From: a phage
Sequence record: PZ476263.1
DNA length: 64,000 nt
Reading direction: 5' to 3' (one strand)
The position numbers and the translations under genes were made by a program. Numbering within the stretch: the first letter of the stretch is position 1; the number at the start of each line of letters is the position of its first letter. Under the pieces are notes generated by a model, which had not been told where the DNA came from, made no database searches, and saw only the letters and a list, made by a program, of their open reading frames with translations. Shown here one piece after another: positions 25,542 through 51,502 of the stretch.

Positions 25542-26774
25542 ATGATCCCTTTTCCAATTATAAACTTCGGTGCAGGACCTGTAATTCCGGCTGGGGTGAA
25601 AATTAAAAATATTCTTAATAATGTTTCTGGCGGAATCTATCTTTTGCTAACAAATGGTGATCTCTATGTTGTTGGTAATCAGGGCGGAAACGGTCTAGGA
25701 AAGAACGGAACAGCAAATATATTACCTTCTGGGTGGACCCTTACAAACACAGGTGTTGAGGAAGTCTATCCTGCAAGTATTACATATGGTTCTGGTGTGT
25801 GGGTTAAGAAGAATAATAATCTTTATGAGTATACGTCATCTTCAGTATTCCCTGCCGTAGCTACTGAACTAAATAACTCCTGGAACGTATTGCCTGCATC
25901 TTATTACACAATAGGAGGGGTTAATATACTGTCCTCCGCTGTCCAGATAACTAAAAACTACGCTATTCAACCTGACGGCACAGTTTACCAATTCAAAGCC
26001 ACAGGTCCTGAAGTGGCATGGCCCGAGAAGACTAAATACATTTTCGAAAATACCTTTAACCAAGTAAGGGTTGATGTTGACGGAAGTTTAAGATACAACG
26101 GTCCCAACGGGTACGACAGGATAGATGGCACTGTTTCTGGGGCAACTACCACATTGACTTGGAAAACAATAGGCGATTCCACAGTAAGATACGTGAAGGC
26201 AAAATGTTCGAGAGGTCAAATAAGAGATCCTTCCGGCGGGACTGGTGCGGTCCCTATAGTTGCTGTCTTTGCTCAAAGAGAAGATGGAGTTTGGGAAGGA
26301 TGCGGATCTACAGGTAGAGCAGGTTCCTCGCTTGGCAATTTACAAGGACCTACCTTGGGTGTAATGACCGACGTACCTGTGGGTAGTGACCTCTATACAG
26401 GTCAGGTATCCAGTTACAGAGAGGCGAGCTTAGGTGTGAGGACTGCCCTTCAAACATATATTGTAGATAGGGTTACCAATACGTACCTTTCCTCTGGCGG
26501 ACAAGGTGGTGAAACATACTCCCTGTACAGAAACTTACCTATCGCCACAAACTCTACCACTTATGCATCTATGGATCAACAGATAATTGATGATGGTGGT
26601 GTTCTGACGATTGCGGAAGGATTTGGAGATACCTTTGGACTACTTGCTACAAATAATGGGAGTCTTTATTGGGTTGGTAAGGGTTACAGTGGTACTAACT
26701 GGCCTTCTGACTTTAATAACACCTCTACTTATTTAAGTAAGTTCAATCTTGAAGGGATAGTGATTCCTGAATAA
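25542..26774 (+). CDS. putative tail fibre/receptor-binding protein
   Basis: 410 aa, Gly/Thr/Ser-rich beta-type composition, last gene of the late operon. Confidence 0.4.
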   Translation: MIPFPIINFGAGPVIPAGVKIKNILNNVSGGIYLLLTNGDLYVVGNQGGNGLGKNGTANILPSGWTLTNTGVEEVYPASITYGSGVWVKKNNNLYEYTSSSVFPAVATELNNSWNVLPASYYTIGGVNILSSAVQITKNYAIQPDGTVYQFKATGPEVAWPEKTKYIFENTFNQVRVDVDGSLRYNGPNGYDRIDGTVSGATTTLTWKTIGDSTVRYVKAKCSRGQIRDPSGGTGAVPIVAVFAQREDGVWEGCGSTGRAGSSLGNLQGPTLGVMTDVPVGSDLYTGQVSSYREASLGVRTALQTYIVDRVTNTYLSSGGQGGETYSLYRNLPIATNSTTYASMDQQIIDDGGVLTIAEGFGDTFGLLATNNGSLYWVGKGYSGTNWPSDFNNTSTYLSKFNLEGIVIPE

Positions 26775-26775
26775 T

Positions 26776-26810
26776 AAAAAAGGCTCCCAAAAGGGAGCCT
26801 TTATTTTTAT
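26776..26810. terminator. bidirectional terminator between convergent late and early units
   Basis: AAAAAGGCTCCC-AAAA-GGGAGCCTTTATTTTTAT, with T/A runs on both sides. Confidence 0.6.
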
Positions 26811-26819
26811 CCTTGAATA

Positions 26820-27977
26820 TTAGAATGGAATTTCATCATCGAAATCCATCATTCCGTCTGCAACCGACATATCGATGTGACCATCTGAAATCGTAGATTG
26901 AGGAGCATCTTCTTCACTAGGCTTCAGATCCTGCTGTTTTACAGGATCCTCTACCTTGCCACCATTTCGAATCTTATCTTCCAGAGAATTAATGAATCGG
27001 AATGTTTCTTCTGTTTTCTGAATAAATGCATCAATACTTTCATTTCCCCAACGAGCAGAAAGAATACCGGACTGACCTAAACGTGCACCAAATGCATAAT
27101 CATCTAAAGATTTAAATTCATCACGTAGCTTGGCTTTAACAGAATCCATAGCTTGAAGGATCTGTTCTACGATAACACCTTTTTCCAAAACTGATTGTTC
27201 AGGGAACATAGCTTCAGAAATTGAAAGGGCATTTCCGAGGCGAATAGGTAGATCATCTTTCTTACTGCCGCCGGACTTATTGCCTGTTGAGCCGCCTGAA
27301 TTTTTAGGACCATACGCTTTAAAGTTAGTTACTTTACCTTCACCATCCCGCAGACCTGCAATTCGACCATCTTTAGCAATTTGAGCCAACTGATCATTAG
27401 AAAGAACGACAAAAACTTCTTCACCACTTTCCACTTTCACAACCACACGATTCCCATCTACCGATGTAATATCACCATAGATTTTAGTTGCCGTTGCAGA
27501 AGACGTTTGCTGGCCTTGCTGTGCTGACTGTTGGCGAGCCTCTCGTGCACCGGAAGCGTCCGTAACCTTAATCTTAGATTTCTTACCTTCAATTGATTCA
27601 CCTTGCTCACCATTAGCACGAGTAAAGACTTTCTTTGAAACAGGTAGACGAATCTTCATACCCTCTTTCAGATCAACGTAGCCACCTTCAGGATTCTTAA
27701 TCTGGAACTGATTTTCATACTTCAGATTCTTAACTTCACCTTCACCAAAAGAAATCCAAGCCTGATCTTCACCTTCTTTCAACAGAACAGAATATCGATG
27801 AGTATTGTTAATGCTCTTTTGTTGGCCTGTGCTCTTATCCTTGAATGTCGTAACTCGTGGACTGCCGTCTTCATTAATACGTTTGATAACGATTCGCTCA
27901 ATAGTACCCGCAGCGATAGAAACAGTAACATCGTTAACAGCATCGTATACAGAATTAATAACTTTAACTTCAGACAT
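26820..27977 (-). CDS. single-stranded DNA-binding protein-like, acidic C-terminal tip
   Basis: 385 aa, Gln/Ser-rich linker, C-terminus '...MDFDDEIPF' closely matching the E. coli SSB tip (DFDDDIPF). Strong SD. Confidence 0.5.
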   Translation of the reverse strand: MSEVKVINSVYDAVNDVTVSIAAGTIERIVIKRINEDGSPRVTTFKDKSTGQQKSINNTHRYSVLLKEGEDQAWISFGEGEVKNLKYENQFQIKNPEGGYVDLKEGMKIRLPVSKKVFTRANGEQGESIEGKKSKIKVTDASGAREARQQSAQQGQQTSSATATKIYGDITSVDGNRVVVKVESGEEVFVVLSNDQLAQIAKDGRIAGLRDGEGKVTNFKAYGPKNSGGSTGNKSGGSKKDDLPIRLGNALSISEAMFPEQSVLEKGVIVEQILQAMDSVKAKLRDEFKSLDDYAFGARLGQSGILSARWGNESIDAFIQKTEETFRFINSLEDKIRNGGKVEDPVKQQDLKPSEEDAPQSTISDGHIDMSVADGMMDFDDEIPF

Positions 27978-36852: not shown

Positions 36853-37755
36853 TTAGTGACAATCTCCCCAGCTGTATCCACACAAGTATTCCCCTGTGAT
36901 ATGCACTGGTGATTTCATCATCTTAGCTGCTTGTTCGACACAACGAACAACCATCTCTCCTACAGGGCAGTATGTAATAGTGAAGATACCATTTTCATCT
37001 GGATCACACTTAAACTTACCTTCCTTGACACAATGGCCTTCGAGGACCATCTTCTTAGCAAGACATGCCTCAACAAAAGCTTTTGCATCAGCTTCGTTAT
37101 CAAACTTCCATACCTTTTTGAACTTCTCCGGCACTTCAAGCTGGTACTCGTCATGGTAATAAATTGTACGACGTACACCTTGATCATACCAACCTTTTTT
37201 AACCAGCTGCCAATGCAACAGGATACCTACCAAGTCAAACATGGCAGCACCACCGTTCTGTTGGAAAGCGTTAAGCAATGAGTGTTTGGATCGGGTATAG
37301 ATCTTACGACCATCAAGACCATAAATGAATCGTTTACCGTTGGCTTCCCAAAACTTCTCAAGTGCTTCTTTACGACCTTTCAAACCTAAGTTGCTATCCC
37401 AAAATGCATCGATTACTGCTTGTGCTTTCTCCAATGAAATTCCAAGCATGGATGCAATCTTAGCTGCTTGAGCACCGTACATAATTCCATAGGTGATCCC
37501 CTTTCCTTCCCCACGAGATACTTTCTTACCCGCTGCCTTGGTATATGCTTCTGCGTTTCGACTATGAGCATCACCACTTTCCATAATTCGGAGGTAAGCA
37601 CCACCATCGAATTCATAACTTCCCCATGCAGCGACCATACCCTCTAAGTTAGAACCGTCTATACCTACCTGATACTTACCCTCGGGTACAGTGAAAAGGT
37701 CACGCATTTCTTTACCTAGAAGAACCTTAGGATCAGGCTTCGGCACGTTAGCACA
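36853..37755 (-). CDS. DNA polymerase (family A), 3' exon
   Basis: Contains motif A-like 'VGIDGSNLEGM', motif B-like 'ITYGIMYGAQAAKIA' and motif C 'YHDEYQLEV'. Frame stays open upstream of the GTG ('..ANVPKP', cf. PNLxNIP). Confidence 0.75.
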   Translation of the reverse strand, partial: CANVPKPDPKVLLGKEMRDLFTVPEGKYQVGIDGSNLEGMVAAWGSYEFDGGAYLRIMESGDAHSRNAEAYTKAAGKKVSRGEGKGITYGIMYGAQAAKIASMLGISLEKAQAVIDAFWDSNLGLKGRKEALEKFWEANGKRFIYGLDGRKIYTRSKHSLLNAFQQNGGAAMFDLVGILLHWQLVKKGWYDQGVRRTIYYHDEYQLEVPEKFKKVWKFDNEADAKAFVEACLAKKMVLEGHCVKEGKFKCDPDENGIFTITYCPVGEMVVRCVEQAAKMMKSPVHITGEYLCGYSWGDCH

Positions 37756-38959
37756 ATATGTTCGTTAAAGGTCGCAACTCTTTAACCGGGATCGTATACA
37801 CCTGAAGAAATATCTCTTCACACTTTCGAGTACGATTCCTGTTTCTTTTGCTACGTCACAGAAATCTTTCCCATCAAGTATCATTTTTGTTATCTCTAGT
37901 TCCAACTCTTCTTTAGTTTTGTTTCTTAACTTACTGACCCCAAAAGTTTTATCTTCGGCAAATTTACCGATAAAAAATCTAACTGTCGGTTTCTCTAAGT
38001 TTAGGATCTCACAAATCTTTAAAAGAGTCGCACCTTTCCACCATAAAGATCTTGCTTCTTCTGCAAGATGTTTCTTTTCTTCCACTTCAGAAACACATTT
38101 CCCCATGTCGAAAGTTTTTAAGTATCTTGCTGCAAAGTGCCTTTCTTGTCCAAGGTCCAGAGAGATTTTTGCATACGAATCACCTGCCAGATATCTTTTA
38201 TGGATGTGCAGATACATCTCTCCATAGTTATCAAAGCCGGATTGTTTTGCTCTATTATCTCTTTTTGCCATTGAACTTCTTTCAGATGCGATAGTTTTTA
38301 TGGACTCACCAAAAGAGTTTCCAATTGCATCTGGACTAGGACTCACCGCTGAAAAAGTATTATTAGTCATGTTATAGAATTCTGTATTGTTGGCTGCATC
38401 ATTCTCTAAAAGAACTTTTTCTTCGATTTCACGAAGGAGATCTCTTTTGTCTACAACTTCCAACACCTCAGCTACAAATCTATGACCACTTTTTAAATCC
38501 TTTTTCATATCTGGATTGGAAGAGGACCCAAGATAAGGTTTTCCACTCTTAATCGAGATTATTGTGGGGATTCCATCCACATCTATCACTTTGCATTCAC
38601 TTTTACTTCCGATATATTTGTTCGGGTATTCTTCTTTATCGATGTTTTTCAAGAGATAAACAATGTTCATGTATACGTCCTCCGCTGTATCTTTCAACAC
38701 AGTTCAGACTATATCTTTGACACACTAAAGGATAGCTGAACCAATCTACCCCTAATGTATCACAAACCACTTCGATTGTCTACGCTTACAATCTACGCCT
38801 TCCGGCTAGTCGTTGAACCTTCTACCTGTCTGGTAGCTTGGCTGCTGATTGCCCAATCCTTTAACTTTTTAAACCTTCGCTTTGTATTCCTACTCGCAGT
38901 GGTATAAAGGCTCTAAGGGGTTCCCAGCAATTCAATTTGTTTTATACTGAGGCAGCTTT
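37756..38959 (-). mobile_element. group I intron (with homing endonuclease ORF) in the DNA polymerase gene
   Basis: Minus-strand RNA carries the conserved elements in order: P-like AAUUGCUGGGAAC (38920-38931), Q-like AAUCAGCAGCC (38840-38850), R-like GUUCAACGACUAG (38806-38818), S-like AAGAUAUAGUC (38707-38717). Boundaries approximate. Confidence 0.7.
37765..38670 (-). CDS. GIY-YIG family homing endonuclease (intron-encoded)
   Basis: Starts 'MNIVYLLKNIDKEEYPNKYIGSK...' (IVY...YIGS, cf. I-TevI GIY...YVGS); SD GGAGGA; ORF lies 3' of the intron core. Confidence 0.6.
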   Translation of the reverse strand: MNIVYLLKNIDKEEYPNKYIGSKSECKVIDVDGIPTIISIKSGKPYLGSSSNPDMKKDLKSGHRFVAEVLEVVDKRDLLREIEEKVLLENDAANNTEFYNMTNNTFSAVSPSPDAIGNSFGESIKTIASERSSMAKRDNRAKQSGFDNYGEMYLHIHKRYLAGDSYAKISLDLGQERHFAARYLKTFDMGKCVSEVEEKKHLAEEARSLWWKGATLLKICEILNLEKPTVRFFIGKFAEDKTFGVSKLRNKTKEELELEITKMILDGKDFCDVAKETGIVLESVKRYFFRCIRSRLKSCDL

Positions 38960-40694
38960 AGTTTACCACAGTGTGTTTACGACGGCCTGTATTCGTTATT
39001 CCAGTATAACGTGCAGGTAATTTACCGTCCACCGCAAGTCGAGGATGGTTTAACCAACCTGTATCTACTTTATCCTCTTTCAAAGGATCAAGAACACTTC
39101 GACGGTTACGAAGAGATAGCCATTTTACAATCTGCTTTGCCATATCACCATCGACTCGCTCAAGGTTAGGACAAAGGCCCTGCTGATCCTTAAGCTGCGG
39201 TGATGTTGGTAATGCTCTTGCCTTCTTCCTGAAGAACTTATACATCTTCTCTTTATCTTGCCACTGCTTACCACTGATACCTAAACTTTTCAGAATCAGA
39301 TCGCGATATTCAGTCTGGTCAAGATCATCAATGTATTGACGAACAATGATATCGACTTCGTTATCGGGACGTTGTTTCTTAAACTGGTCCTTCGTCGCAT
39401 CTTTGGTTCGCCACAATGTTGGGACCCAACCCGCATCACGAATAAGGAATTTTTTAACGTCATCCTGATTACCAATACGCATCGGAATCATAATATCCGG
39501 CATCTTTTGATCTTTGATATCCATCAATGCACGGGCCATGTCTTCCGGTGGCAAAGGTACAAGATTTTCCTTTTTCACATTTTGAGAACGAATAAATTCA
39601 GCCATTTTGGATTCATCTTCTACACCATGCTCTACACAATACTTAATTGCAGCAGATGTGAGTGAACCATCGCCCTTAAACGGCTTACTTGGAGCGCCTT
39701 TAAATTCAAGAGCTTCCCAATTCACATTGTAACCTAACTTCTCTAACCATTTCCAGCCCGTACCAGAAAGAGATCCATCTCCTTTAAACGGCTTAGACGG
39801 GAAAGTAGGCTGTGCTGACTTGGACATCTCTTTCTTCGGCAGCTTTGGTTCAACCTCTTCTTCAATTTCTTTCATCATCGTATCAATACGATCACGCAAA
39901 GCTAAACCTTTCTCCACGTCGAAAGTAACACCCTGAATTTCTTGCTCAACCATCAAATAGTCGGTAAGCATACCTCGACGCAAGGCATTCTTCCAATTGA
40001 TGAGCTTCATCTTCTTCGGATCTTTGTCCGATTCATCTTTGTACATGAAACGTTTATCATCCGGCATAGAGTCACATGAAATTTCTTTCATGAGGGCATC
40101 CCATACCATTTCGTTGATGATTACGTCTTCAATAATACGATCACAATATTTCCACAAAGGGAGTCCACGCCAATCTTCGATTGCTACCTTCTGGTTTGCT
40201 ACTCGCATACCCCAAGCTTCAAGTCCATGAGGGCCTACAGGCTTCATTTTACCTGTAACTGGGTTCTTTACCATCTCGGGACAACCGCGCGGCAGAGGGC
40301 GATCTGGATACAGTGTACGGGACATTGAAAGGGTATCGAAGATGTTAACTTGTTTACCATTGATAGTCCCCATGCAACCAGGGTCTGCAAACATATCGTA
40401 TGTTGTTCCAAACATCTTTTTAAACAGCTGTAAGTCATAGCCGAAGATATTATGGATAGCAACAGCTTTTGGTTCAGTCACAAACCACTCATTAAGTTCT
40501 TCCAACTTACGGATCTTAAAGTTCTTACCTTTGGATTGAATAAACTTAACCGCTTGCTCGTAGCCTTCGCGGTTCGGATCGATAAAAATATTCCAATTGT
40601 CCTTTTTGTACTCTTTAAAAAGAACACAGTGAACAAGATCAACTTCTGTCAACAGGCCGTTAGCCTCTGCATCTCCAATAAACAAACCTTTCAT
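38958..40694 (-). CDS. DNA polymerase (family A), 5' exon with 3'-5' exonuclease domain
   Basis: N-terminus 'MKGLFIGDAEANGLL' matches the T7-type Exo I motif; ends '...YTGITNTGRR' (cf. TGR..PNL.NIP) before running into intron sequence. Confidence 0.75.
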   Translation of the reverse strand: MKGLFIGDAEANGLLTEVDLVHCVLFKEYKKDNWNIFIDPNREGYEQAVKFIQSKGKNFKIRKLEELNEWFVTEPKAVAIHNIFGYDLQLFKKMFGTTYDMFADPGCMGTINGKQVNIFDTLSMSRTLYPDRPLPRGCPEMVKNPVTGKMKPVGPHGLEAWGMRVANQKVAIEDWRGLPLWKYCDRIIEDVIINEMVWDALMKEISCDSMPDDKRFMYKDESDKDPKKMKLINWKNALRRGMLTDYLMVEQEIQGVTFDVEKGLALRDRIDTMMKEIEEEVEPKLPKKEMSKSAQPTFPSKPFKGDGSLSGTGWKWLEKLGYNVNWEALEFKGAPSKPFKGDGSLTSAAIKYCVEHGVEDESKMAEFIRSQNVKKENLVPLPPEDMARALMDIKDQKMPDIMIPMRIGNQDDVKKFLIRDAGWVPTLWRTKDATKDQFKKQRPDNEVDIIVRQYIDDLDQTEYRDLILKSLGISGKQWQDKEKMYKFFRKKARALPTSPQLKDQQGLCPNLERVDGDMAKQIVKWLSLRNRRSVLDPLKEDKVDTGWLNHPRLAVDGKLPARYTGITNTGRRKHTVVN

Positions 40695-41012: not shown

Positions 41013-41452
41013 CGTTCAATCTCCTTCTTTTTGGACATAGTGATGAAATAGTTCTGACCTTTCTTGCACTGGTTAAACCAGCCAACAAGATATCCATCTT
41101 CGATACGAATATCATACTCAGGGTATTCGCCCGTTCCACTGATTATATGGAAAAGTTTACCGAAGTCAATAAAGGTCAGATTATACTGAAAGTTTTCCTC
41201 GTCCTGGAAGATTGCAACAGCAGAGCTTCGGCCCTTTGACGTAGTAATAAACTTAAGTTTAAGTTCACGATGCTCATGATCGACAATGTTAACTTTTCTC
41301 TCAAGCAAGTAATTTGGGTCAACACGGGGCCAATGAGCTTTAAATCTTTCAGCGCCTTCTTCAGTAAAGGCATCACCATCGTAACCAGTAAACCATTTAC
41401 CATTATCTTTTACGTAGCCATGATAACTACGCTTACCTTTTACTTTAATCAT
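41009..41452 (-). CDS. hypothetical protein
   Basis: 147-aa ORF, ATGA overlap. Confidence 0.4.
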   Translation of the reverse strand: MIKVKGKRSYHGYVKDNGKWFTGYDGDAFTEEGAERFKAHWPRVDPNYLLERKVNIVDHEHRELKLKFITTSKGRSSAVAIFQDEENFQYNLTFIDFGKLFHIISGTGEYPEYDIRIEDGYLVGWFNQCKKGQNYFITMSKKKEIER

Positions 41453-41652
41453 TCCGTTATCTCCTCTTGTTCTGGATCTTCGATCATTGAGCTTTTAACT
41501 CTTGACCCGTATGTGGTCATTTCACCCGACCTACTCGAACCCTCAGGTGCTCTTATGACAGCATGACCTCTTAATAGTGTTCCTTCGTAGGTTTGTCCAA
41601 CTACAAAACCCATTTGGGAAACACCATTATCTCTATAACAAAGTAAATTCAT
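41449..41652 (-). CDS. tandem small-protein family, member 11 (divergent)
   Basis: 'VVGQTYEG' ... 'IEDPEQEEITE'. Start uncertain. Confidence 0.35.
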   Translation of the reverse strand: MNLLCYRDNGVSQMGFVVGQTYEGTLLRGHAVIRAPEGSSRSGEMTTYGSRVKSSMIEDPEQEEITE

Positions 41653-41863
41653 CGTTCTCTATTTTAATTTCCTCTGTGATTTTATTTTCGGGATCAAGAA
41701 TAAGGCATGACTTTTTACACGGCACGGAATAAAACAACCCCCGCTCGTTTGGACAGATAATTAAAATATTTCGACCTCCCATATCTTTACCCTCGTAAGA
41801 CTCTCCTACCATTACCCCTTTGTCCCTCAGGAAACTATCCTCTTTTATGTAGATATACCTCAT
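41633..41863 (-). CDS. tandem small-protein family, member 10
   Basis: 'MRYIYIKED...VGESYEG...CLILDPENK'; pairs with member 4. Confidence 0.45.
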   Translation of the reverse strand: MRYIYIKEDSFLRDKGVMVGESYEGKDMGGRNILIICPNERGLFYSVPCKKSCLILDPENKITEEIKIENDEFTLL

Positions 41864-42060
41864 AGGCTGTTTTCCTCAGGGTCAAGAATAAAATGTTTAT
41901 CTTCGCAAAATCCCCAGTTATTTTCTCGTCCTAATGGATAGATACAGAGAATATTTTTCTTTATACTTGCATATTTCCCTTCATAAGTACAGCCTATTTC
42001 TACATGTTTCCAAGTAGGAACACTTAAGCATATGTATTTTTTAAATGTTTCTTCATTCAT
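41860..42060 (-). CDS. tandem small-protein family, member 9
   Basis: 'KKYICLS...GCTYEG...LCIYP...FILDPEENSL'. Confidence 0.45.
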   Translation of the reverse strand: MNEETFKKYICLSVPTWKHVEIGCTYEGKYASIKKNILCIYPLGRENNWGFCEDKHFILDPEENSL

Positions 42061-42256
42061 TTTGGTCCTCCCCCTCAGGGTCAATAACGAAGTGTATAGA
42101 ATTTAAATATCTTATCCCACCATCCAACCCTGTCGGGTAGATACAAAGATAGTGAAGCATTACGCTATCTTCACATCCATAATAAGTCGATCCTAAAGAA
42201 ACTTGACTGCTTGCTTTATCTGATAAGCAGATGTACTTTTTTAAATCCTGTTTCAT
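42053..42256 (-). CDS. tandem small-protein family, member 8
   Basis: 'KKYICLS...GSTYYG...LCIYP...FVIDPEGEDQNE'. Confidence 0.45.
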   Translation of the reverse strand: MKQDLKKYICLSDKASSQVSLGSTYYGCEDSVMLHYLCIYPTGLDGGIRYLNSIHFVIDPEGEDQNE

Positions 42257-42459
42257 TCATTAACCTCCTCAGGGTCGAGAATGAAATCATTAAAATCGCA
42301 AATTATCCAATCAGCAGACCAAGGGTGATGACCATCAGGGAAAATATATAGAACACCAGGTATCATTCCCCCTATAAAACCTGTATATGTCTCGCCTATT
42401 TTGACAAGATCCTCGTTACTTTTTATACAGAGGAACTTTTTAGTGTTTTTATCTCTCAT
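42253..42459 (-). CDS. tandem small-protein family, member 7
   Basis: 'KKFLCIKS...GETYTG...LYIFP...FILDPEEVNE'. Confidence 0.45.
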   Translation of the reverse strand: MRDKNTKKFLCIKSNEDLVKIGETYTGFIGGMIPGVLYIFPDGHHPWSADWIICDFNDFILDPEEVNE

Positions 42460-42662
42460 TTTTTAATATCCTCTGGTTCCTTTGCAAAACTCTTAGTGCC
42501 TATATATACCCATCCACTACCTATTCCATGAGGATATATACAAAGTGCATCCGACATTGTACTGTCGAATCCTGAATAAGTCTCCCCCAAATTAAGATTT
42601 GAGCATCCTTTGGTGCTTATGCATATGTAATTTTGAATATACATTTCAGGTTTTTGTTTCAT
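42456..42662 (-). CDS. tandem small-protein family, member 6
   Basis: Start at the ATG with SD GAGGAG: 'MKQKPEMYIQNYICIS...GETYSG...LCIYP...AKEPEDIKK'. Confidence 0.45.
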   Translation of the reverse strand: MKQKPEMYIQNYICISTKGCSNLNLGETYSGFDSTMSDALCIYPHGIGSGWVYIGTKSFAKEPEDIKK

Positions 42663-42666
42663 TTTA

Positions 42667-42864
42667 TTACTCCTCGTGCTCGGGGTCAAGAACGAAGTCC
42701 GCAGAATGATAGTACACACCATAAGTTTCTATCCCTTTCGGAAAAATATGAAGATAGTTGCTCATTAAAATATCTTTACGACCATAATAGGTCAATCCTT
42801 GAGAGATTGCTGTACCTGCCTCATCAGATATGCAAAGATACTTTTTAAATCCTATTTCACTCAT
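42667..42864 (-). CDS. tandem small-protein family, member 5
   Basis: 'KKYLCIS...GLTYYG...LHIFP...FVLDPEHEE'. Confidence 0.45.
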   Translation of the reverse strand: MSEIGFKKYLCISDEAGTAISQGLTYYGRKDILMSNYLHIFPKGIETYGVYYHSADFVLDPEHEE

Positions 42865-43053
42865 TTAATCTCCTTCCGGATCAGCCGCTAAGCAAGATCC
42901 CTTACAAGGTGCTGACCTGAGCCAACCCTCATCGTTTAAATAGTAAATGATAATAACAGCATCTCCTATACCCTCAGTGCCTTCGTAAGATTCTCCTATT
43001 ATCAACGGGTAGTCTTCCAAAAGGCGATCTTCTTTTATGTAGATATATTTCAT
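42865..43053 (-). CDS. tandem small-protein family, member 4
   Basis: 'MKYIYIKED...IGESYEG...CLAADPEGD'. Confidence 0.45.
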   Translation of the reverse strand: MKYIYIKEDRLLEDYPLIIGESYEGTEGIGDAVIIIYYLNDEGWLRSAPCKGSCLAADPEGD

Positions 43054-43245
43054 TTATTCATCGCCTTCGGGATCTTCGACAAAATTATCTAACTTTACAG
43101 GCATAGATAAATTATCAGTCACCTTCACTGTGATGTAAATACTTTGAAAAGATTTAAATTTATTCTCTTCCCGATAAGTCTCGCCAACTACCAAGAGTTT
43201 AGAGTCCTTATTTTGTATGCATAGATAATTTGTCATTGTTTTCAC
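43054..43245 (-). CDS. tandem small-protein family, member 3
   Basis: 'NYLCIQN...VGETY...FVEDPEGDE'. Confidence 0.45.
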   Translation of the reverse strand: MKTMTNYLCIQNKDSKLLVVGETYREENKFKSFQSIYITVKVTDNLSMPVKLDNFVEDPEGDE

Positions 43246-43445
43246 CTGTATTCAGGGTCTTCCGTGAAACTCTCCTTATTGAAAAATAGAGTAGTATCTT
43301 CATTTGGGAACGTTATAGGTATGTACTTACCCCGAGGAATACTATCGTTTATAAAGTAAGTCATACCTAATTGAAGTTTAGTGCTGTGTATGTTACTTAT
43401 ACATATAACCCCGACAAATCTTTCACCCTTCCTCTCCTTCTTCAT
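43242..43445 (-). CDS. tandem small-protein family, member 2
   Basis: 'VGVICIS...LGMTYF...FTEDPEYR'. Confidence 0.4.
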   Translation of the reverse strand: MKKERKGERFVGVICISNIHSTKLQLGMTYFINDSIPRGKYIPITFPNEDTTLFFNKESFTEDPEYR

Positions 43446-43632
43446 ATATTTCAGGATCCTCTACAAAATCAGATTTCTTAAGCCATAGTTCCAAAGTATC
43501 ACTTACCCTTACGGATATCTGCCCACCAAATATTTTAGATGGTCTTACATAGTAAGTTTCTCCGATTACAAGTTTGTAAGTAGACCTATTGCTAACGCAG
43601 AGAAACTTAACATATTTTTGCTGTATACTCAT
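43423..43632 (-). CDS. tandem small-protein family, member 1
   Basis: 'VKFLCVS...IGETYY...FVEDPEIYEEGEEG'. Confidence 0.45.
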   Translation of the reverse strand: MSIQQKYVKFLCVSNRSTYKLVIGETYYVRPSKIFGGQISVRVSDTLELWLKKSDFVEDPEIYEEGEEG

Positions 43633-46670: not shown

Positions 46671-48713
46671 TCAGAAAGGTGCTTCCTCGTCGAAATCCAC
46701 ATCTTCAACTTCCGGTACGTCTGGAATGTTTGCTGCCGCTTCGACAATATCTTGTTGCTCCCAAATCTCTTCCATAGGTTGTCCAAGTTCTTCCATTACT
46801 TCCTTCATCTCTTGCTTCTGAGCTTCAAGGAAGTTTTCATCCGGATCTGGAATGTCCTCTTCTGTGATATCCGAACGGGTAAGGTCCGAATTACTTTCCG
46901 ACAGAGGCTGGATTTCAGCTGCCTTTGGCTTAAAGTCTGGAGAACGATGATCATCTTCTGGATGTGCTGCATACCATTCCCGAAGAGTCTCATATGGACT
47001 GTCCAAAAAGCCTTCTGGCGGCTCAAGGTAATCACCCGTGTCAATGTCATAGAACACAGGGAATTTACCAGCACGACCGTGTTTACGGTCATCCAGAATA
47101 ACAAACCATGAAGTATTTCGTTGCTTCATAGGTAGTTCTGGATCTTTGTTACGCTCAATACCCCACATGTAATACGTGTTACGCATCATTGCACGACTAC
47201 CAGCAAACTGAGCTGATTGAACTTGACCACCAAACTCGTGTGGCTTACCTGCATCTGGCTTATTGAGGTGGCAGAAGCAATAATAAGTAAAACCAAGTTC
47301 TTTAGCCAGCTTGGAGATCTCATCAGAGAACCGCTCAAGTTCCTGGTTAGCCTCTGACGCACTCATACCCTGAACAAGTCGAGTGATCGGGTCAATAAAG
47401 ATATCTTCACACCCTTCTACGATTACAGCATGGCGGATAGCACCTTTCAGTTCATCCCATACTGCACGACCATAGTTGTTATAGTAAATTACACTATCAC
47501 CAACTTCATCTGTCGCCTTGATCAGCTCTTCCTGCTTAAAGTATCCACGTTGACCTTCAAAAACTTCATTGCCCCAAATGTCACGGTAAGTCCCGTCAGG
47601 TTGCGGAAGCATTACTTTTTCTGCGTTAACGAAGTCTTTATGATATCGCTTACCTGCAATCTTCTTACAGGTGATTTCGTTCTCTTCTTCAAACTTAAAT
47701 ACCGCTGCTTTTGCTTTCTCTACGCCAGTGATATGTTCAACCAGCTGGTTAAGCAATTCACTCTTACCCATTTTTACACCCGCACCAATGAAGTAACCTT
47801 CACCGAGGCGACGGCCCAAAGTAAGTTTTGTCAGTGTAGGCCAAGGGAATTTTTTACCCAGCTTAGGGATTTCATGAGCCTTTTCACGGAATTGTGAATA
47901 AGTTGAAAAACCGTCCGGTACATATTCCTTTGGTTTCATTGCTGCCCAAAACAACTGATCAGCAAGACCTTTGTTATACATGTCACAAGGGTCCATATCT
48001 TCAGGGATATCGACCACCTTCATTTGAGGAATAACAGAGTAAACTGCGGCAACCGCATCTTTACCCTTCATAATTCCTTTTGCTTTTTCTGCTTCAGTTG
48101 CCCGATCCGCATCGAAAGCTACAATAATCTCATCAAACTTACTTAACAGCTTATAGTTGTTCTTTTGTGACAAGTTCTGAACAGCGTTAGAAGTTCCGTT
48201 AGAGATGGAAACAACTGTGAAGTTCGGTTTACGTGTCGCACCATCTTTGGGTTTATACTTTTCACGAAGAACTTGCCAAAGAACGGCAGCATCGTATTCA
48301 CCCTCAGTGATAAAGATCATTCGTTTGGAGGATTTATTAGCACCTTCAAGACCAAACAGATCACAAGCTACCGATTGAAAACCGATAGTTGTAAAATGAC
48401 CTTTCTGCTGTTTTGGGATTGTAAGATCACGCTTCTTAAAACCTACAATCTTCCCATCCAAAGTATACGGAAAGTAATGTGCTTCTGCCGAAAGACCGTC
48501 TTTTGCGGAAAGCTTAGTACGAATACCAAAACGCTCTGCTGTCTTTTCATCGATACCACGCTCAGGGATTGCTTTGAACGGATAAGTCATTACATCTGCA
48601 ACTGTTTCTTCTACTCGCGAAGAACTGCTACCAAAACTACGTTGAACACTGGCCTTTGGATTCTTATGCCCAAATTTGTAACCGCCAAACAAACTTTCTC
48701 CGATGGTACTCAT
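46671..48713 (-). CDS. primase-helicase (TOPRIM plus DnaB/gp4-like helicase)
   Basis: TOPRIM-like 'IFITEGEYDAAV', helicase Walker A 'GAGVKMGKSE', acidic C-terminus '...DVDFDEEAPF'. No N-terminal Cys4 zinc ribbon seen. Confidence 0.7.
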   Translation of the reverse strand: MSTIGESLFGGYKFGHKNPKASVQRSFGSSSSRVEETVADVMTYPFKAIPERGIDEKTAERFGIRTKLSAKDGLSAEAHYFPYTLDGKIVGFKKRDLTIPKQQKGHFTTIGFQSVACDLFGLEGANKSSKRMIFITEGEYDAAVLWQVLREKYKPKDGATRKPNFTVVSISNGTSNAVQNLSQKNNYKLLSKFDEIIVAFDADRATEAEKAKGIMKGKDAVAAVYSVIPQMKVVDIPEDMDPCDMYNKGLADQLFWAAMKPKEYVPDGFSTYSQFREKAHEIPKLGKKFPWPTLTKLTLGRRLGEGYFIGAGVKMGKSELLNQLVEHITGVEKAKAAVFKFEEENEITCKKIAGKRYHKDFVNAEKVMLPQPDGTYRDIWGNEVFEGQRGYFKQEELIKATDEVGDSVIYYNNYGRAVWDELKGAIRHAVIVEGCEDIFIDPITRLVQGMSASEANQELERFSDEISKLAKELGFTYYCFCHLNKPDAGKPHEFGGQVQSAQFAGSRAMMRNTYYMWGIERNKDPELPMKQRNTSWFVILDDRKHGRAGKFPVFYDIDTGDYLEPPEGFLDSPYETLREWYAAHPEDDHRSPDFKPKAAEIQPLSESNSDLTRSDITEEDIPDPDENFLEAQKQEMKEVMEELGQPMEEIWEQQDIVEAAANIPDVPEVEDVDFDEEAPF

Positions 48714-48870: not shown

Positions 48871-49146
48871 TTAAAAACCTCCAGTTTCTTCATTGAATGC
48901 TCGTTCGAGTTGAGCATTACGAACCTGATTTTCAATGTTACGATACACTACAGAGTAAGGAATATCAAGAGCAACTTCTTCACCATCTTCATAAACAGTT
49001 ACCGACCAAATGTCCATATAATCACTTGCGTCCCAGTCACTTGCGGCTTCTTCAATACCTTTGGTAAGGATAACTTCAGCCTCAACAACAACTTCTTTAC
49101 CAATTTCTTCGTTAAACATGGTGAATTCGATATTTACTGTACGCAT
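48871..49146 (-). CDS. hypothetical acidic protein
   Basis: 91-aa ORF. Confidence 0.4.
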   Translation of the reverse strand: MRTVNIEFTMFNEEIGKEVVVEAEVILTKGIEEAASDWDASDYMDIWSVTVYEDGEEVALDIPYSVVYRNIENQVRNAQLERAFNEETGGF

Positions 49147-50149: not shown

Positions 50150-51502
50150 TTATTGAAAAATTGTCGGGAACTTTTCCTTATAGAAAGCCACAACATCTTG
50201 ATCAACGATAACATCCTTTACTCGCAAACGCTTAAGTAAGCGAAGACCGCTAGTATCTGTCGCACGAGAAAGCATAACGTAAGCCTGACCAGGTGAGAAT
50301 GTCCCATATCCTAGATCAATGTTAACTTTACCAAGTGTAAGACCCTGTGCTTTGTGTCCGGTGATCGCATATCCCAACTTAAATGGATACTGAATATATT
50401 CACCAATTGACTTATCAACCAAAACTGTTTTCTCTACCATCTTCTTAATGGTCTTCTTAGTCCCATCCGGCATATCAATCTCTACGTCTTCGAGAACATT
50501 TTTCTTTTCAGGGACTTGTGTAATATTGTTCCAAGTGAACGGTGCAATCGGGACCATTTTACCATCGATCTCTACAACAACGAAAGTTTTAGCGATACGT
50601 CGAATAATTCCAACAGTACCATTCACATAATCAGGGGTCTTTTTCTTCTGATCATTGTCATTAACGACAATCATAACCTTAAGACCTTCTTTGAGCATTA
50701 ATTTTTCATTAACAGGACGCTCAGTAAATTCACCTGTGATACGTGCATTGAATTCATGAGGTTCTGCCTTAATTTTAGAAAATTCTTTATTGTTAATCTC
50801 TTCCGCGAGCTTGTTTGTTGTTGTAAGAGTTACAGCACCCTCTAAAGAAGGCCCATAGCATTTACTGTTAAAGTAATTCACCGCATCAGGAATGTTTTTA
50901 CCGATACGAATATTATTGAGATGTTCAGCAAATTCTGGATCTGTTTGGCGATGAACCTTAGGCAAGTAAGCATAAGTCATATCCAAGGATTCCCAAGCCT
51001 CACAACCAAAAGGGATTTCTTTACCGTGAAGTTCACGGAATGTTGGAACTTCTTCTTTTTTAAGGACAGGCTTGATCTGGAAGCCATCACCAAACATGAT
51101 TACCTGCAAGCCACCGAAAGGCTCATTAACTTTACGATGATAACGCAGCTTCATATCGATCTCTTTAAGCTTGTCACTACGTGTCATGCCGATCTCATCG
51201 AATACGATTGCATCCAATGCTTCAGATGCCATAAGCATAGCGGGTTTCTTTGATTTAGCTTTATAATCTTCGCTTGTGGTTACTCCAAAGGTGAGTCCAA
51301 AAGCTTTATGAGTCGTCACACCACGGATATTCAATGAAGCTACGCCAGTTGGTGCGACAAAAAGAAAACTGTCAGCAAAGAATTCACGCAGAGAAGCGAT
51401 CATCATACTTTTACCACTACCACCAGGGCCTGTAACGAAAACATTCTTCCCTGCCATAATCTCTGCCATAGCCGCTTCTGTACCGATAACATAATTACTC
51501 AT
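50150..51502 (-). CDS. Dda/Pif1/RecD-like superfamily 1 DNA helicase
   Basis: Walker A 'VTGPGGSGKS', 'FVAPTGVAS', Walker B 'IVFDEIGM'. Confidence 0.65.
   Translation of the reverse strand: MSNYVIGTEAAMAEIMAGKNVFVTGPGGSGKSMMIASLREFFADSFLFVAPTGVASLNIRGVTTHKAFGLTFGVTTSEDYKAKSKKPAMLMASEALDAIVFDEIGMTRSDKLKEIDMKLRYHRKVNEPFGGLQVIMFGDGFQIKPVLKKEEVPTFRELHGKEIPFGCEAWESLDMTYAYLPKVHRQTDPEFAEHLNNIRIGKNIPDAVNYFNSKCYGPSLEGAVTLTTTNKLAEEINNKEFSKIKAEPHEFNARITGEFTERPVNEKLMLKEGLKVMIVVNDNDQKKKTPDYVNGTVGIIRRIAKTFVVVEIDGKMVPIAPFTWNNITQVPEKKNVLEDVEIDMPDGTKKTIKKMVEKTVLVDKSIGEYIQYPFKLGYAITGHKAQGLTLGKVNIDLGYGTFSPGQAYVMLSRATDTSGLRLLKRLRVKDVIVDQDVVAFYKEKFPTIFQ

Follow-up and report, generated by a model that had tools for sequence, protein, structure and literature searches.

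Do the replication proteins of a phage reach one another through their C-terminal tails, do they reach the partners of the host, or both? This question is raised by a stretch of phage DNA of 64,000 nucleotides (sequence record PZ476263.1; the whole stretch is hereafter called the window), in which a 385-amino-acid (aa) protein resembling an SSB (single-stranded DNA-binding protein) and a primase-helicase of the T7 gp4 type both carry an acidic C-terminus closing in Pro-Phe (PF), as does the SSB of Escherichia coli. The source phage is rV5-like and belongs to the Vequintavirinae. A sequence-only reading of the window had taken both tails for almost exact copies of the host tip and, by analogy with phage T7, had suggested either coordination of the replisome or competition for host SSB-interacting proteins. 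Here, we present an analysis of the two tails, of the protein families carrying them and of the DNA polymerase encoded nearby. The paired acidic PF tails are real and far beyond chance, and on balance we lean towards T7-style docking of both on the polymerase of the phage, and towards an SSB tip that suits the SSB partners of the host as well.

Two acidic tails ending in Pro-Phe

The open reading frame (ORF) at 26820-27977 on the minus strand encodes the 385-aa SSB-like protein and ends in ...HIDMSVADGMMDFDDEIPF (equal to ...GHIDMSVADGMMDFDDEIPF, i.e. MMDFDDEIPF), and the minus-strand ORF at 46671-48713 encodes the 680-aa primase-helicase with the ending ...PEVEDVDFDEEAPF (equal to ...IPDVPEVEDVDFDEEAPF, i.e. 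DVDFDEEAPF). The sequence-only reading had both endings and both sets of coordinates exactly right. A stop codon directly follows MDFDDEIPF in the SSB-like gene, leaving a free C-terminal Phe. Compared with the end of E. coli SSB, EPPMDFDDDIPF (PMDFDDDIPF), as read from a PDB alignment, the SSB-like tail is equal at eight of the ten final residues and at seven of the last eight, and the helicase tail at five of eight (D-F-D-x-x-x-P-F). The tip DFDDDIPF of E. coli SSB (PF00436) is a hub for about 15-20 SSB-interacting proteins.

These are the only acidic ...PF C-termini among the 295 ORFs of the window with at least 50 aa. Given the window's own amino-acid frequencies, an ending of the form D-F-D-[DE]-[DE]-x-P-F has a probability of ~3.5e-9 per protein, and the loose ending of three acidic residues plus PF, occurring twice in ~95 genes, one of ~5e-8. 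The pairing is thus confirmed as a real feature of the window, and it is not confined to it, as the following tails illustrate.

Window: SSB-like tail DFDDEIPF; helicase tail DFDEEAPF
Bas52 (Vequintavirus): SSB-like tail SFDDDIPF; helicase tail FEDDETPF
CR3 (Certrevirus): SSB-like tail DFDDDIPF; helicase tail MDDDCPF
PVP-SE1 (Seunavirus): SSB-like tail DFDDDIPF followed by an extension; helicase tail MDEDTPF
T7, for comparison: gp2.5 ...EDGDF; gp4 ...NDTDF

The pair recurs in three further Vequintavirinae genera (four lineages in total) in proteins that are ~25-40% identical, and between the window and Bas52 it is kept though both proteins are only ~25% identical. In each sampled genome segment, no ORF besides those of the SSB-like protein and the helicase has an acidic ...PF end (or, for PVP-SE1, the tip motif with the extension behind it). 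Literature searches on phage mimics of the SSB C-terminal tip (SSB-Ct) and on rV5 SSB or DDDIPF returned nothing about a helicase-borne SSB tip; the SSB-like arm and tip of the helicase, and their co-conservation with the SSB tip in the Vequintavirinae, are undescribed in the papers that our searches found.

The claim that both tails copy the host tip holds for one of them. The SSB tail is a near-exact and family-wide copy, but the homologues of the helicase keep only PF and negative charge, and the likeness of the window's DFDEEAPF to DFDDEIPF represents the near end of a looser family consensus.

The SSB-like protein and its family

A word-index search recovered 90 homologues of the 385-aa protein, all named hypothetical or without a name, and 89 of them carry the SSB-type tip, down to ~28% identity. 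The consensus D-F-D-D-D-I-P-F terminates 77 of these proteins, and 12 more have the same eight residues followed by an extension. In the logo of the tip (n = 77 + 12), seven of the eight positions hold 3.8-4.3 bits; the variable position is -4, with D in 55, E (as in the window) in 13 and other residues in 9 sequences. A hidden Markov model search of 1.84 billion representative proteins widened the family to 202 clusters, and 97 of the 141 newly found representatives terminate in [IVLM]PF. Additionally, metagenomic contigs of 138-141 kb encode near-identical (94-97%) relatives of the window protein.

The protein matches the profile PHROG 4477, labelled 'unknown function' in the database, almost end to end (E 8.8e-76, with residues 4-385 of the protein covering positions 1-393 of the 393-position profile), and an AlphaFold2 (AF2) model built from a 52-sequence alignment has a mean predicted local distance difference test (pLDDT) score of 82.5. 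The predicted template modelling score (pTM) of 0.42 leaves the relative placement of the domains uncertain. The gene and its parts are as follows, where OB denotes the oligonucleotide/oligosaccharide-binding fold.

26820-27977, minus strand: gene of the 385-aa SSB-like protein (PHROG 4477), from the profile match, the 90 homologues and the homology to Bas52_0087
27558-27977, minus strand: N-terminal beta-rich OB-fold domain, residues 1-140, presumed to bind single-stranded DNA (ssDNA), from the AF2 model
27312-27488, minus strand: small second beta-barrel domain, residues 164-222, from AF2 strands with pLDDT 85-94
26967-27251, minus strand: four-helix domain, residues 243-337, a putative oligomerisation module, from AF2
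26823-26966, minus strand: disordered acidic linker and SSB-Ct tip, residues 338-385, from pLDDT and composition
26823-26846, minus strand: codons of the tip DFDDEIPF

The small beta barrel corresponds to the 'second OB' of a recent preprint (bioRxiv 10.64898/2026.04.29.721553) and is absent from the ~280-aa members of PHROG 4477, which have a single N-terminal beta domain. The helices of the four-helix domain (243-257, 263-284, 293-308 and 315-337) are preceded and accompanied by the invariant residues D241, G248 and A250 with which this domain begins, and the domain forms, together with the tip, the most widely conserved portion of the family. The linker and tip (338-385) contain 13 D/E against 3 K/R, with pLDDT below 50 at residues 344-368. 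The Vequintavirinae form of the family has 375-420 aa and two beta domains; a form of 240-300 aa with one beta domain occurs in Stephanstirmvirinae (phAPEC8-like phages, e.g. phAPEC8 and ESCO25) and in Aeromonas Plateaulakevirus, and both forms retain the helical domain, acidic linker and tip. Many of the 202 clusters likewise hold proteins of ~260-300 aa, in which one beta domain at the N-terminus is followed by the same helical domain, acidic linker and tip. All ten shorter (~280-aa) members tested match PHROG 4477, and a Pfam search on these ten gave no match, so no canonical SSB domain was recognised at their N-termini. Some distant members (within the homologue set P0224-P0351) terminate in LPW, not in [IL]PF.

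In Foldseek searches of the PDB with the model, bacterial SSBs were the commonest matches and mitochondrial SSBs were also among the best, with moderate scores and with the caveat that OB folds are common in non-SSB proteins too (aminoacyl-tRNA synthetases, eIF5A and IF1). When the PDB was searched with the family profile, the sole sequence match was the tip of E. coli SSB (E 0.06). Pfam, at E values up to 0.1, assigned no family to the 385-aa protein and gave no match to the SSB family PF00436; a sub-threshold match to the SH3-like Myosin_N falls in the small beta domain. A phmmer search with E. coli SSB, a query whose final 39 residues agree with the PDB alignment, was not significant against the protein (E = 1.2) and turned up no canonical SSB, either in the window or in those parts of Bas52, CR3 and PVP-SE1 that were scanned. 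The annotations of Bas52 at 30-130 kb likewise contain no SSB, and some recent GenBank records label homologues of the 385-aa protein as ssDNA-binding proteins. The predicted fold and architecture support the description of the protein as SSB-like. It is very probably the phage's replicative SSB, of a predicted non-canonical kind, and PHROG 4477 is likely to be a modular non-canonical SSB family, an assignment that is new among the papers found by our searches. Kinship with T7 gp2.5 was considered and rejected, as there is no detectable sequence relation.

With bacterial SSB the protein shares a modular logic, namely a predicted OB-fold domain, a disordered linker and a tip that is identical to the bacterial one in most family members and at seven of eight residues in the window. 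It differs by the missing Pfam SSB profile match and significant phmmer E value, by its additional small beta and four-helix domains, and by the composition of its linker, which is acidic here and Gly/Gln/Pro-rich in bacterial SSB. In the homologue of phage CR3 (gp035, L004:4104-5336), residues ~106-125, 'PVQIRKWTDNDGNER', align with 'QLRTRKWTDQSGQDR' of E. coli SSB (~83-97) in a non-significant phmmer match, which hints at a very remote kinship of the family's first OB domain with bacterial SSB, as opposed to an independent OB fold.

One member of the family has been met before. Bas52_0087 of Vequintavirus RudolfGeigy/Bas52 is required to activate the reverse-transcriptase defence DRT10 (UG17), which is linked to and modulated by the exonuclease SbcB/ExoI, a protein that binds the SSB tip; the same work already called Bas52_0087 SSB-like with an E. 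coli-type C-tip, and its Phold run also assigned SSB to the homologue (bioRxiv 10.64898/2026.04.29.721553). The SSB half of the observation is therefore already published as a prediction. The window protein is homologous to Bas52_0087 (QXV84166.1) over its full length (BLASTP E 7e-21) and shares with it the family, the predicted architecture and the FDDxIPF tip, but the two are only 26% identical and come from different genera. The preprint is silent on the matching helicase tail; the Bas52 helicase terminates in ...FEDDETPF.

The primase-helicase, the polymerase and the replication block

The second tail sits on a protein that is clearly related to T7 gp4, with matches to PHROG 239 (E 1.2e-159) and to Pfam DnaB_C (E 4.8e-7) and a weak match to Toprim. 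Aligned with T7 gp4A, residues 46-528 of the window protein show 26% identity (E 2e-31), and the acidic Toprim motifs EGE, DxD and D line up; the AF2 model of the protein has a pLDDT of 82.7 with residues 1-32 disordered.

46671-48713, minus strand: 680-aa T7 gp4-type primase-helicase (Toprim plus DnaB_C/RecA-like), from PHROG, Pfam and homology to T7 gp4A
46674-47000, minus strand: acidic, proline-rich C-terminal extension, residues 572-680 (109 aa), from length and charge past EPPEGFLD
46674-46697, minus strand: codons of the tip DFDEEAPF

The extension begins after the conserved EPPEGFLD (564-571) and contains 34 D/E against 7 K/R; the final 30 residues of the protein have a pLDDT below 50. 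The resulting tail of ~110 residues and net charge -27 compares with one of ~17 residues in T7. An acidic ...PF ending is found in 36 of the 120 gp4 homologues listed, another residue plus F in 59, and an 'LPFD'/'IPFN'-like ending in 8, so that 95 of the 120 have a C-terminal Phe. The PF-ending homologues have tails with a median of 96 aa and a charge of -23, against 18 aa and -2 for the short (~570-aa) homologues with another residue before F. Within the PF class, P-F is the sole invariant, positions -4 and -5 are acidic, and an aromatic residue often stands at -6 or -7 without being fixed there. From these C-termini, the helicase tail appears to be a relaxed SSB-Ct-like hook on a long arm resembling the SSB linker, elaborating an ancestral Phe-terminated gp4 tail. 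In more distant primase-helicases (~51-57% identical; P0184, P0188-P0192, P0197 and P0201), D-[LI]-P-F is followed by exactly one residue (LPFD, IPFN, LPFE or LPFQ), an arrangement that looks like another masked tip.

At its other end, the protein lacks the N-terminal Cys4 zinc-binding domain, with no Cys in its first 60 residues and an alignment to gp4A that begins past that domain of T7. The zinc-binding domain of T7 is required for template recognition and template-directed priming. The N-terminus of the Bas52 primase-helicase looks similar to that of the window in a pairwise alignment.

The proposed docking partner of both tails is a DNA polymerase of family A, interrupted by an intron in the window. 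Its C-terminal exon is 31% identical to T7 gp5 residues 471-658 (E 1e-21), and its N-terminal exon gives a match to the exonuclease domain of gp5 (E 1e-6).

36853-40694, minus strand: family-A DNA polymerase, T7 gp5 homologue (PHROG 17/8888, Pfam DNA_pol_A)
38958-40694 and 36853-37746, minus strand: polymerase exons, collinear with the uninterrupted CR3 polymerase
~37747-38960, minus strand: group I intron in the polymerase gene (Rfam RF00028, Intron_gpI, at 38685-39052, 73.8 bits)
37765-38700, minus strand: ORF of a GIY-YIG (SegE-like) homing endonuclease, inside the polymerase intron
50150-51502, minus-strand block: Dda/PIF1-like helicase
26776-26810: bidirectional intrinsic terminator between the convergent tail-fibre-region and SSB-like genes
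25542-26774, plus strand: tail-fibre-region gene, convergent with the SSB-like gene

The polymerase coding sequence of Bas52 is likewise annotated as two joined pieces. The SSB-like and primase-helicase genes both lie within a single long minus-strand replication and early block, which also encodes the polymerase, a DNA methyltransferase and the Dda/PIF1-like helicase. The SSB-like gene is the final gene of this block and is followed by the strong bidirectional terminator, a hairpin GGCUCCC-UUUU-GGGAGCC with A and U runs on its flanks (-23.7 kcal/mol, z = -4.7). The 40-bp region of the terminator (26771-26810) is ~95% identical at the equivalent spot in Proteus phage Mydo, Klebsiella phage BIS47 and Erwinia phage pEp_SNUABM_01; unlike the terminator itself, the genes beside it gave no megablast match in these three phages. 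At the level of DNA, the window is ~80% identical, in patches, to the E. coli myoviruses A5-4, A73, W70, A7_1, vB_EcoM-LTH01 and UPEC06, which have genomes of 137-145 kb and of which at least LTH01 is placed in the Vequintavirinae; phages of the Certrevirus and Mydovirus types are more distant matches.

Two further features of the window have acidic C-termini. Directly upstream of the primase-helicase, a gene at 48871-49146 on the minus strand encodes a 91-aa acidic protein (PHROG 4240, 'unknown function') with the end ...AFNEETGGF. The pattern F-x-E-E-x-G-G-F is kept in all ten of its homologues and in CR3 (LEEDGGF), and an ORF of PVP-SE1 that resembles the protein by eye terminates in FHREEEF; judged by these endings, it may be a third Phe-terminated acidic tail in the replication module, of the T7 'DGDF' type. 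At 41449-43632 (minus strand), ten small paralogous genes of 62-76 aa each stand in tandem. Their products share an invariant G...Y core and an invariant 'DPE' near the acidic C-terminus (F-[VI]-x-D-P-E), and the other copies are ~18-33% identical to the first in pairwise comparison.

Partners on which the tails may dock

In T7, the residues K587, K589, R590 and R591 of a gp5 patch and a patch in the thioredoxin-binding domain receive the tails. Two basic patches of gp5 serve as binding sites for the acidic gp4 tails, whose deletion reduces processivity from 17 kb to ~5 kb (PMC12593628); the front one of these patches also anchors the tail of gp2.5, for which the C-terminal Phe is essential (PMC12339929 and references therein). 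The T7 analogy drawn by the sequence-only reading is backed by homology in two of its three components, the gp4-like helicase and the gp5-like polymerase. The third, the SSB-like protein with its three domains and a tail, is unrelated in sequence to gp2.5. In both systems the SSB and the helicase carry disordered acidic tails ending in Phe. The tips of the window proteins are, however, of the bacterial SSB-Ct type (D-F-D-D-D-I-P-F in the one and acidic residues plus PF in the other), whereas those of T7 are of the 'DxDF' type; further differences are the long helicase arm, the missing zinc-binding domain and the front basic patch of the polymerase, which is only partly alignable. A second precedent is phage HK620, in which the C-terminal hexapeptide NDYPPF of the SSB is needed to stimulate the phage annealase Sak4 (PMC5928155). 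Here too, a phage SSB works with a phage-encoded partner via an SSB-Ct-like tail, but the protein is described as homologous to SSB, its C-terminal tail being like that of E. coli SSB, the partner is a recombinase, and no second protein with the same tail was reported in that study.

As two components are homologous to those of T7 and both tails are conserved, T7-style docking on the polymerase is the best-supported model. Both tails would engage the same basic or hydrophobic site or sites of the polymerase, inserting the terminal Phe with its carboxylate and placing the acidic residues there, and might also dock on each other's DNA-binding grooves. In the helicase, each subunit of a presumed hexamer would carry a flexible acidic arm of ~110 residues with an acidic '...PF-COOH' hook. 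Such docking would tether polymerases to the helicase, help to hand over ssDNA from the SSB to the polymerase and coordinate leading- and lagging-strand synthesis. In addition, the phage SSB tip would plug phage ssDNA into the host SSB interactome or compete for it, and the helicase tail, in which nothing but acidity and PF is kept, could co-evolve freely with a partner from the phage. The addition of the host follows from how differently the two tips are conserved: that of the SSB stays at the host's DFDDDIPF as the rest of the protein diverges to ~25% identity, and that of the helicase varies, which points to conserved host partners of SSB, such as ExoI/SbcB, as a further constraint on the SSB tip. 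This agrees with the link between DRT10 and SbcB, which provides indirect genetic support for the host side of the model.

Several observations weigh against docking on the polymerase. In a pairwise alignment, the front basic patch of T7, 'VKWKRRWIKGLDGRK' (VKWKRRW), lies opposite 'GKRFIYGLDGRK' (GKRF) of the window, with a gap of six residues and two basic residues kept; with KWKRRW opposite the shortened GKRF, the T7 docking site is not obviously conserved. Host partners alone could explain the strict host-like SSB tip, with no need of the polymerase. The mutations of Bas52_0087 that escape DRT10 fall in the helical domain, outside the tip: D252V maps to D241 of the window protein, invariant in 53 of 53 aligned sequences, and Y351C to a variable position, E333. 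Further, ~13% of the SSB-like homologues run 15-16 residues past IPF. Canonical binding in an SSB-Ct pocket needs a free terminal carboxylate. By making the tip internal and burying its carboxylate, the extension should block such binding. It has the consensus IPF-AP[IV]GLQY-xx-HAI-x-x-L (APIGLQYPQLLWSM in the Aeromonas version) and a patchy distribution that reaches relatives 56% identical to the window protein. Its bearers include PVP-SE1 (gene 39, L005:22804-24033), SSBI34 and Aeromonas phage 2L372D (L006:2231-2950), and the extended homologues are P0007, P0008, P0013, P0015, P0020, P0054, P0065, P0070, P0082 and P0086-P0088; a full-text literature search for the motif (APIGLQY/IPFAPIG) found no paper.

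The strongest form of the host argument dispenses with the phage partner: both tails would mainly engage host SSB-interacting proteins (ExoI, RecQ, RecJ, RecO, PriA, the chi subunit of Pol III, DnaG, RNase HI and Ung), recruiting them or titrating them from host SSB, with no essential contact to the polymerase. The frozen SSB tip, being the enterobacterial one throughout a family diverged to ~25% identity, does fit many host partners better than a single co-evolving phage partner, Bas52_0087 is genetically tied to a defence system tuned by SbcB/ExoI, and for a helicase without a zinc-binding domain the recruitment of a host priming or processing factor via an SSB-like tip is conceivable. We nevertheless regard this reading as unlikely, given that the helicase tail varies except for PF and charge, unlike a precise peptide mimic, that the phage has its own polymerase, primase-helicase and Dda/PIF1-like helicase, to which relatives add a ligase and exonucleases, which limits the need of host partners, and that the gp4 family, its short-tailed T7-like homologues included, has the C-terminal Phe as an ancestral trait, one that serves polymerase binding in T7. 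A bolder version, in which the helicase tail is itself a functional SSB tip and the six arms of a hexamer pose as SSB, recruiting or sequestering host proteins such as DnaG, ExoI, RecQ or PriA, seems distinctly unlikely to us; if true, recruitment of DnaG would compensate for the missing zinc-binding domain, and the phage SSB and helicase would form a two-pronged takeover of the host SSB interactome, sensed by defences such as DRT10.

The tails might instead act at home, folding onto the basic DNA-binding surfaces of their own proteins, as has been demonstrated for the C-peptide of E. coli SSB and for T7 gp2.5, and thereby tuning ssDNA affinity, cooperativity or condensates, with partner docking secondary. 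To our knowledge, the same tails dock on partners too in every studied system, and for such autoregulation charge alone suffices, leaving the invariance of I-P-F in the SSB family and of P-F in the helicases unexplained. We therefore hold it to be very unlikely as the main function, even if the precedents are good: intramolecular binding of the SSB C-peptide to its OB domain is established (PMC3936761; discussed in PMC5928155), removal of its tail makes gp2.5 bind ssDNA more strongly (PMC12339929), and the AF2 pLDDT of 57-60 at the extreme tip of the SSB-like protein, against ~45 in the linker, is compatible with a transient contact. That the endings arose by chance, or that the 385-aa protein is a structural or regulatory OB-fold protein and not an SSB, is hardly credible. 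The missing Pfam SSB match, the 'unknown function' label of PHROG 4477, the moderate fold scores and the spread of OB folds among other proteins could be cited for the latter. Yet the gene lies within the replication block with no other SSB candidate nearby, and homologues have been called SSB independently, in several GenBank records and in the Phold run of the preprint. As for chance, the strict tip has the very low per-protein probability given above, and its conservation in 89 of 90 homologues and across 202 clusters, with the pair in four lineages, essentially refutes coincidence.

The paired-tail feature is real, conserved and functionally meaningful, and conceptually it couples a variant of T7's tail-docking replisome with the SSB tip, itself widespread. 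It would extend the T7 principle of a docking peptide shared by SSB and helicase to the ~140-kb Vequintavirinae myoviruses, many of whose group are used or considered for phage therapy, and the part that concerns the SSB family reaches the related Stephanstirmvirinae and Aeromonas phages. It also offers a likely function for PHROG 4477, the sole SSB candidate in the scanned parts of the genomes, and a structural context for the triggering of DRT10 by its homologue Bas52_0087. Concrete variations are seen in the acidic helicase arm of 110 residues, in the lack of a zinc finger and in the extension that occasionally masks IPF. The peptide in common is the SSB tip of the host itself, and these phages pose the choice between internal wiring of the replisome, connection to the host SSB interactome, or both.

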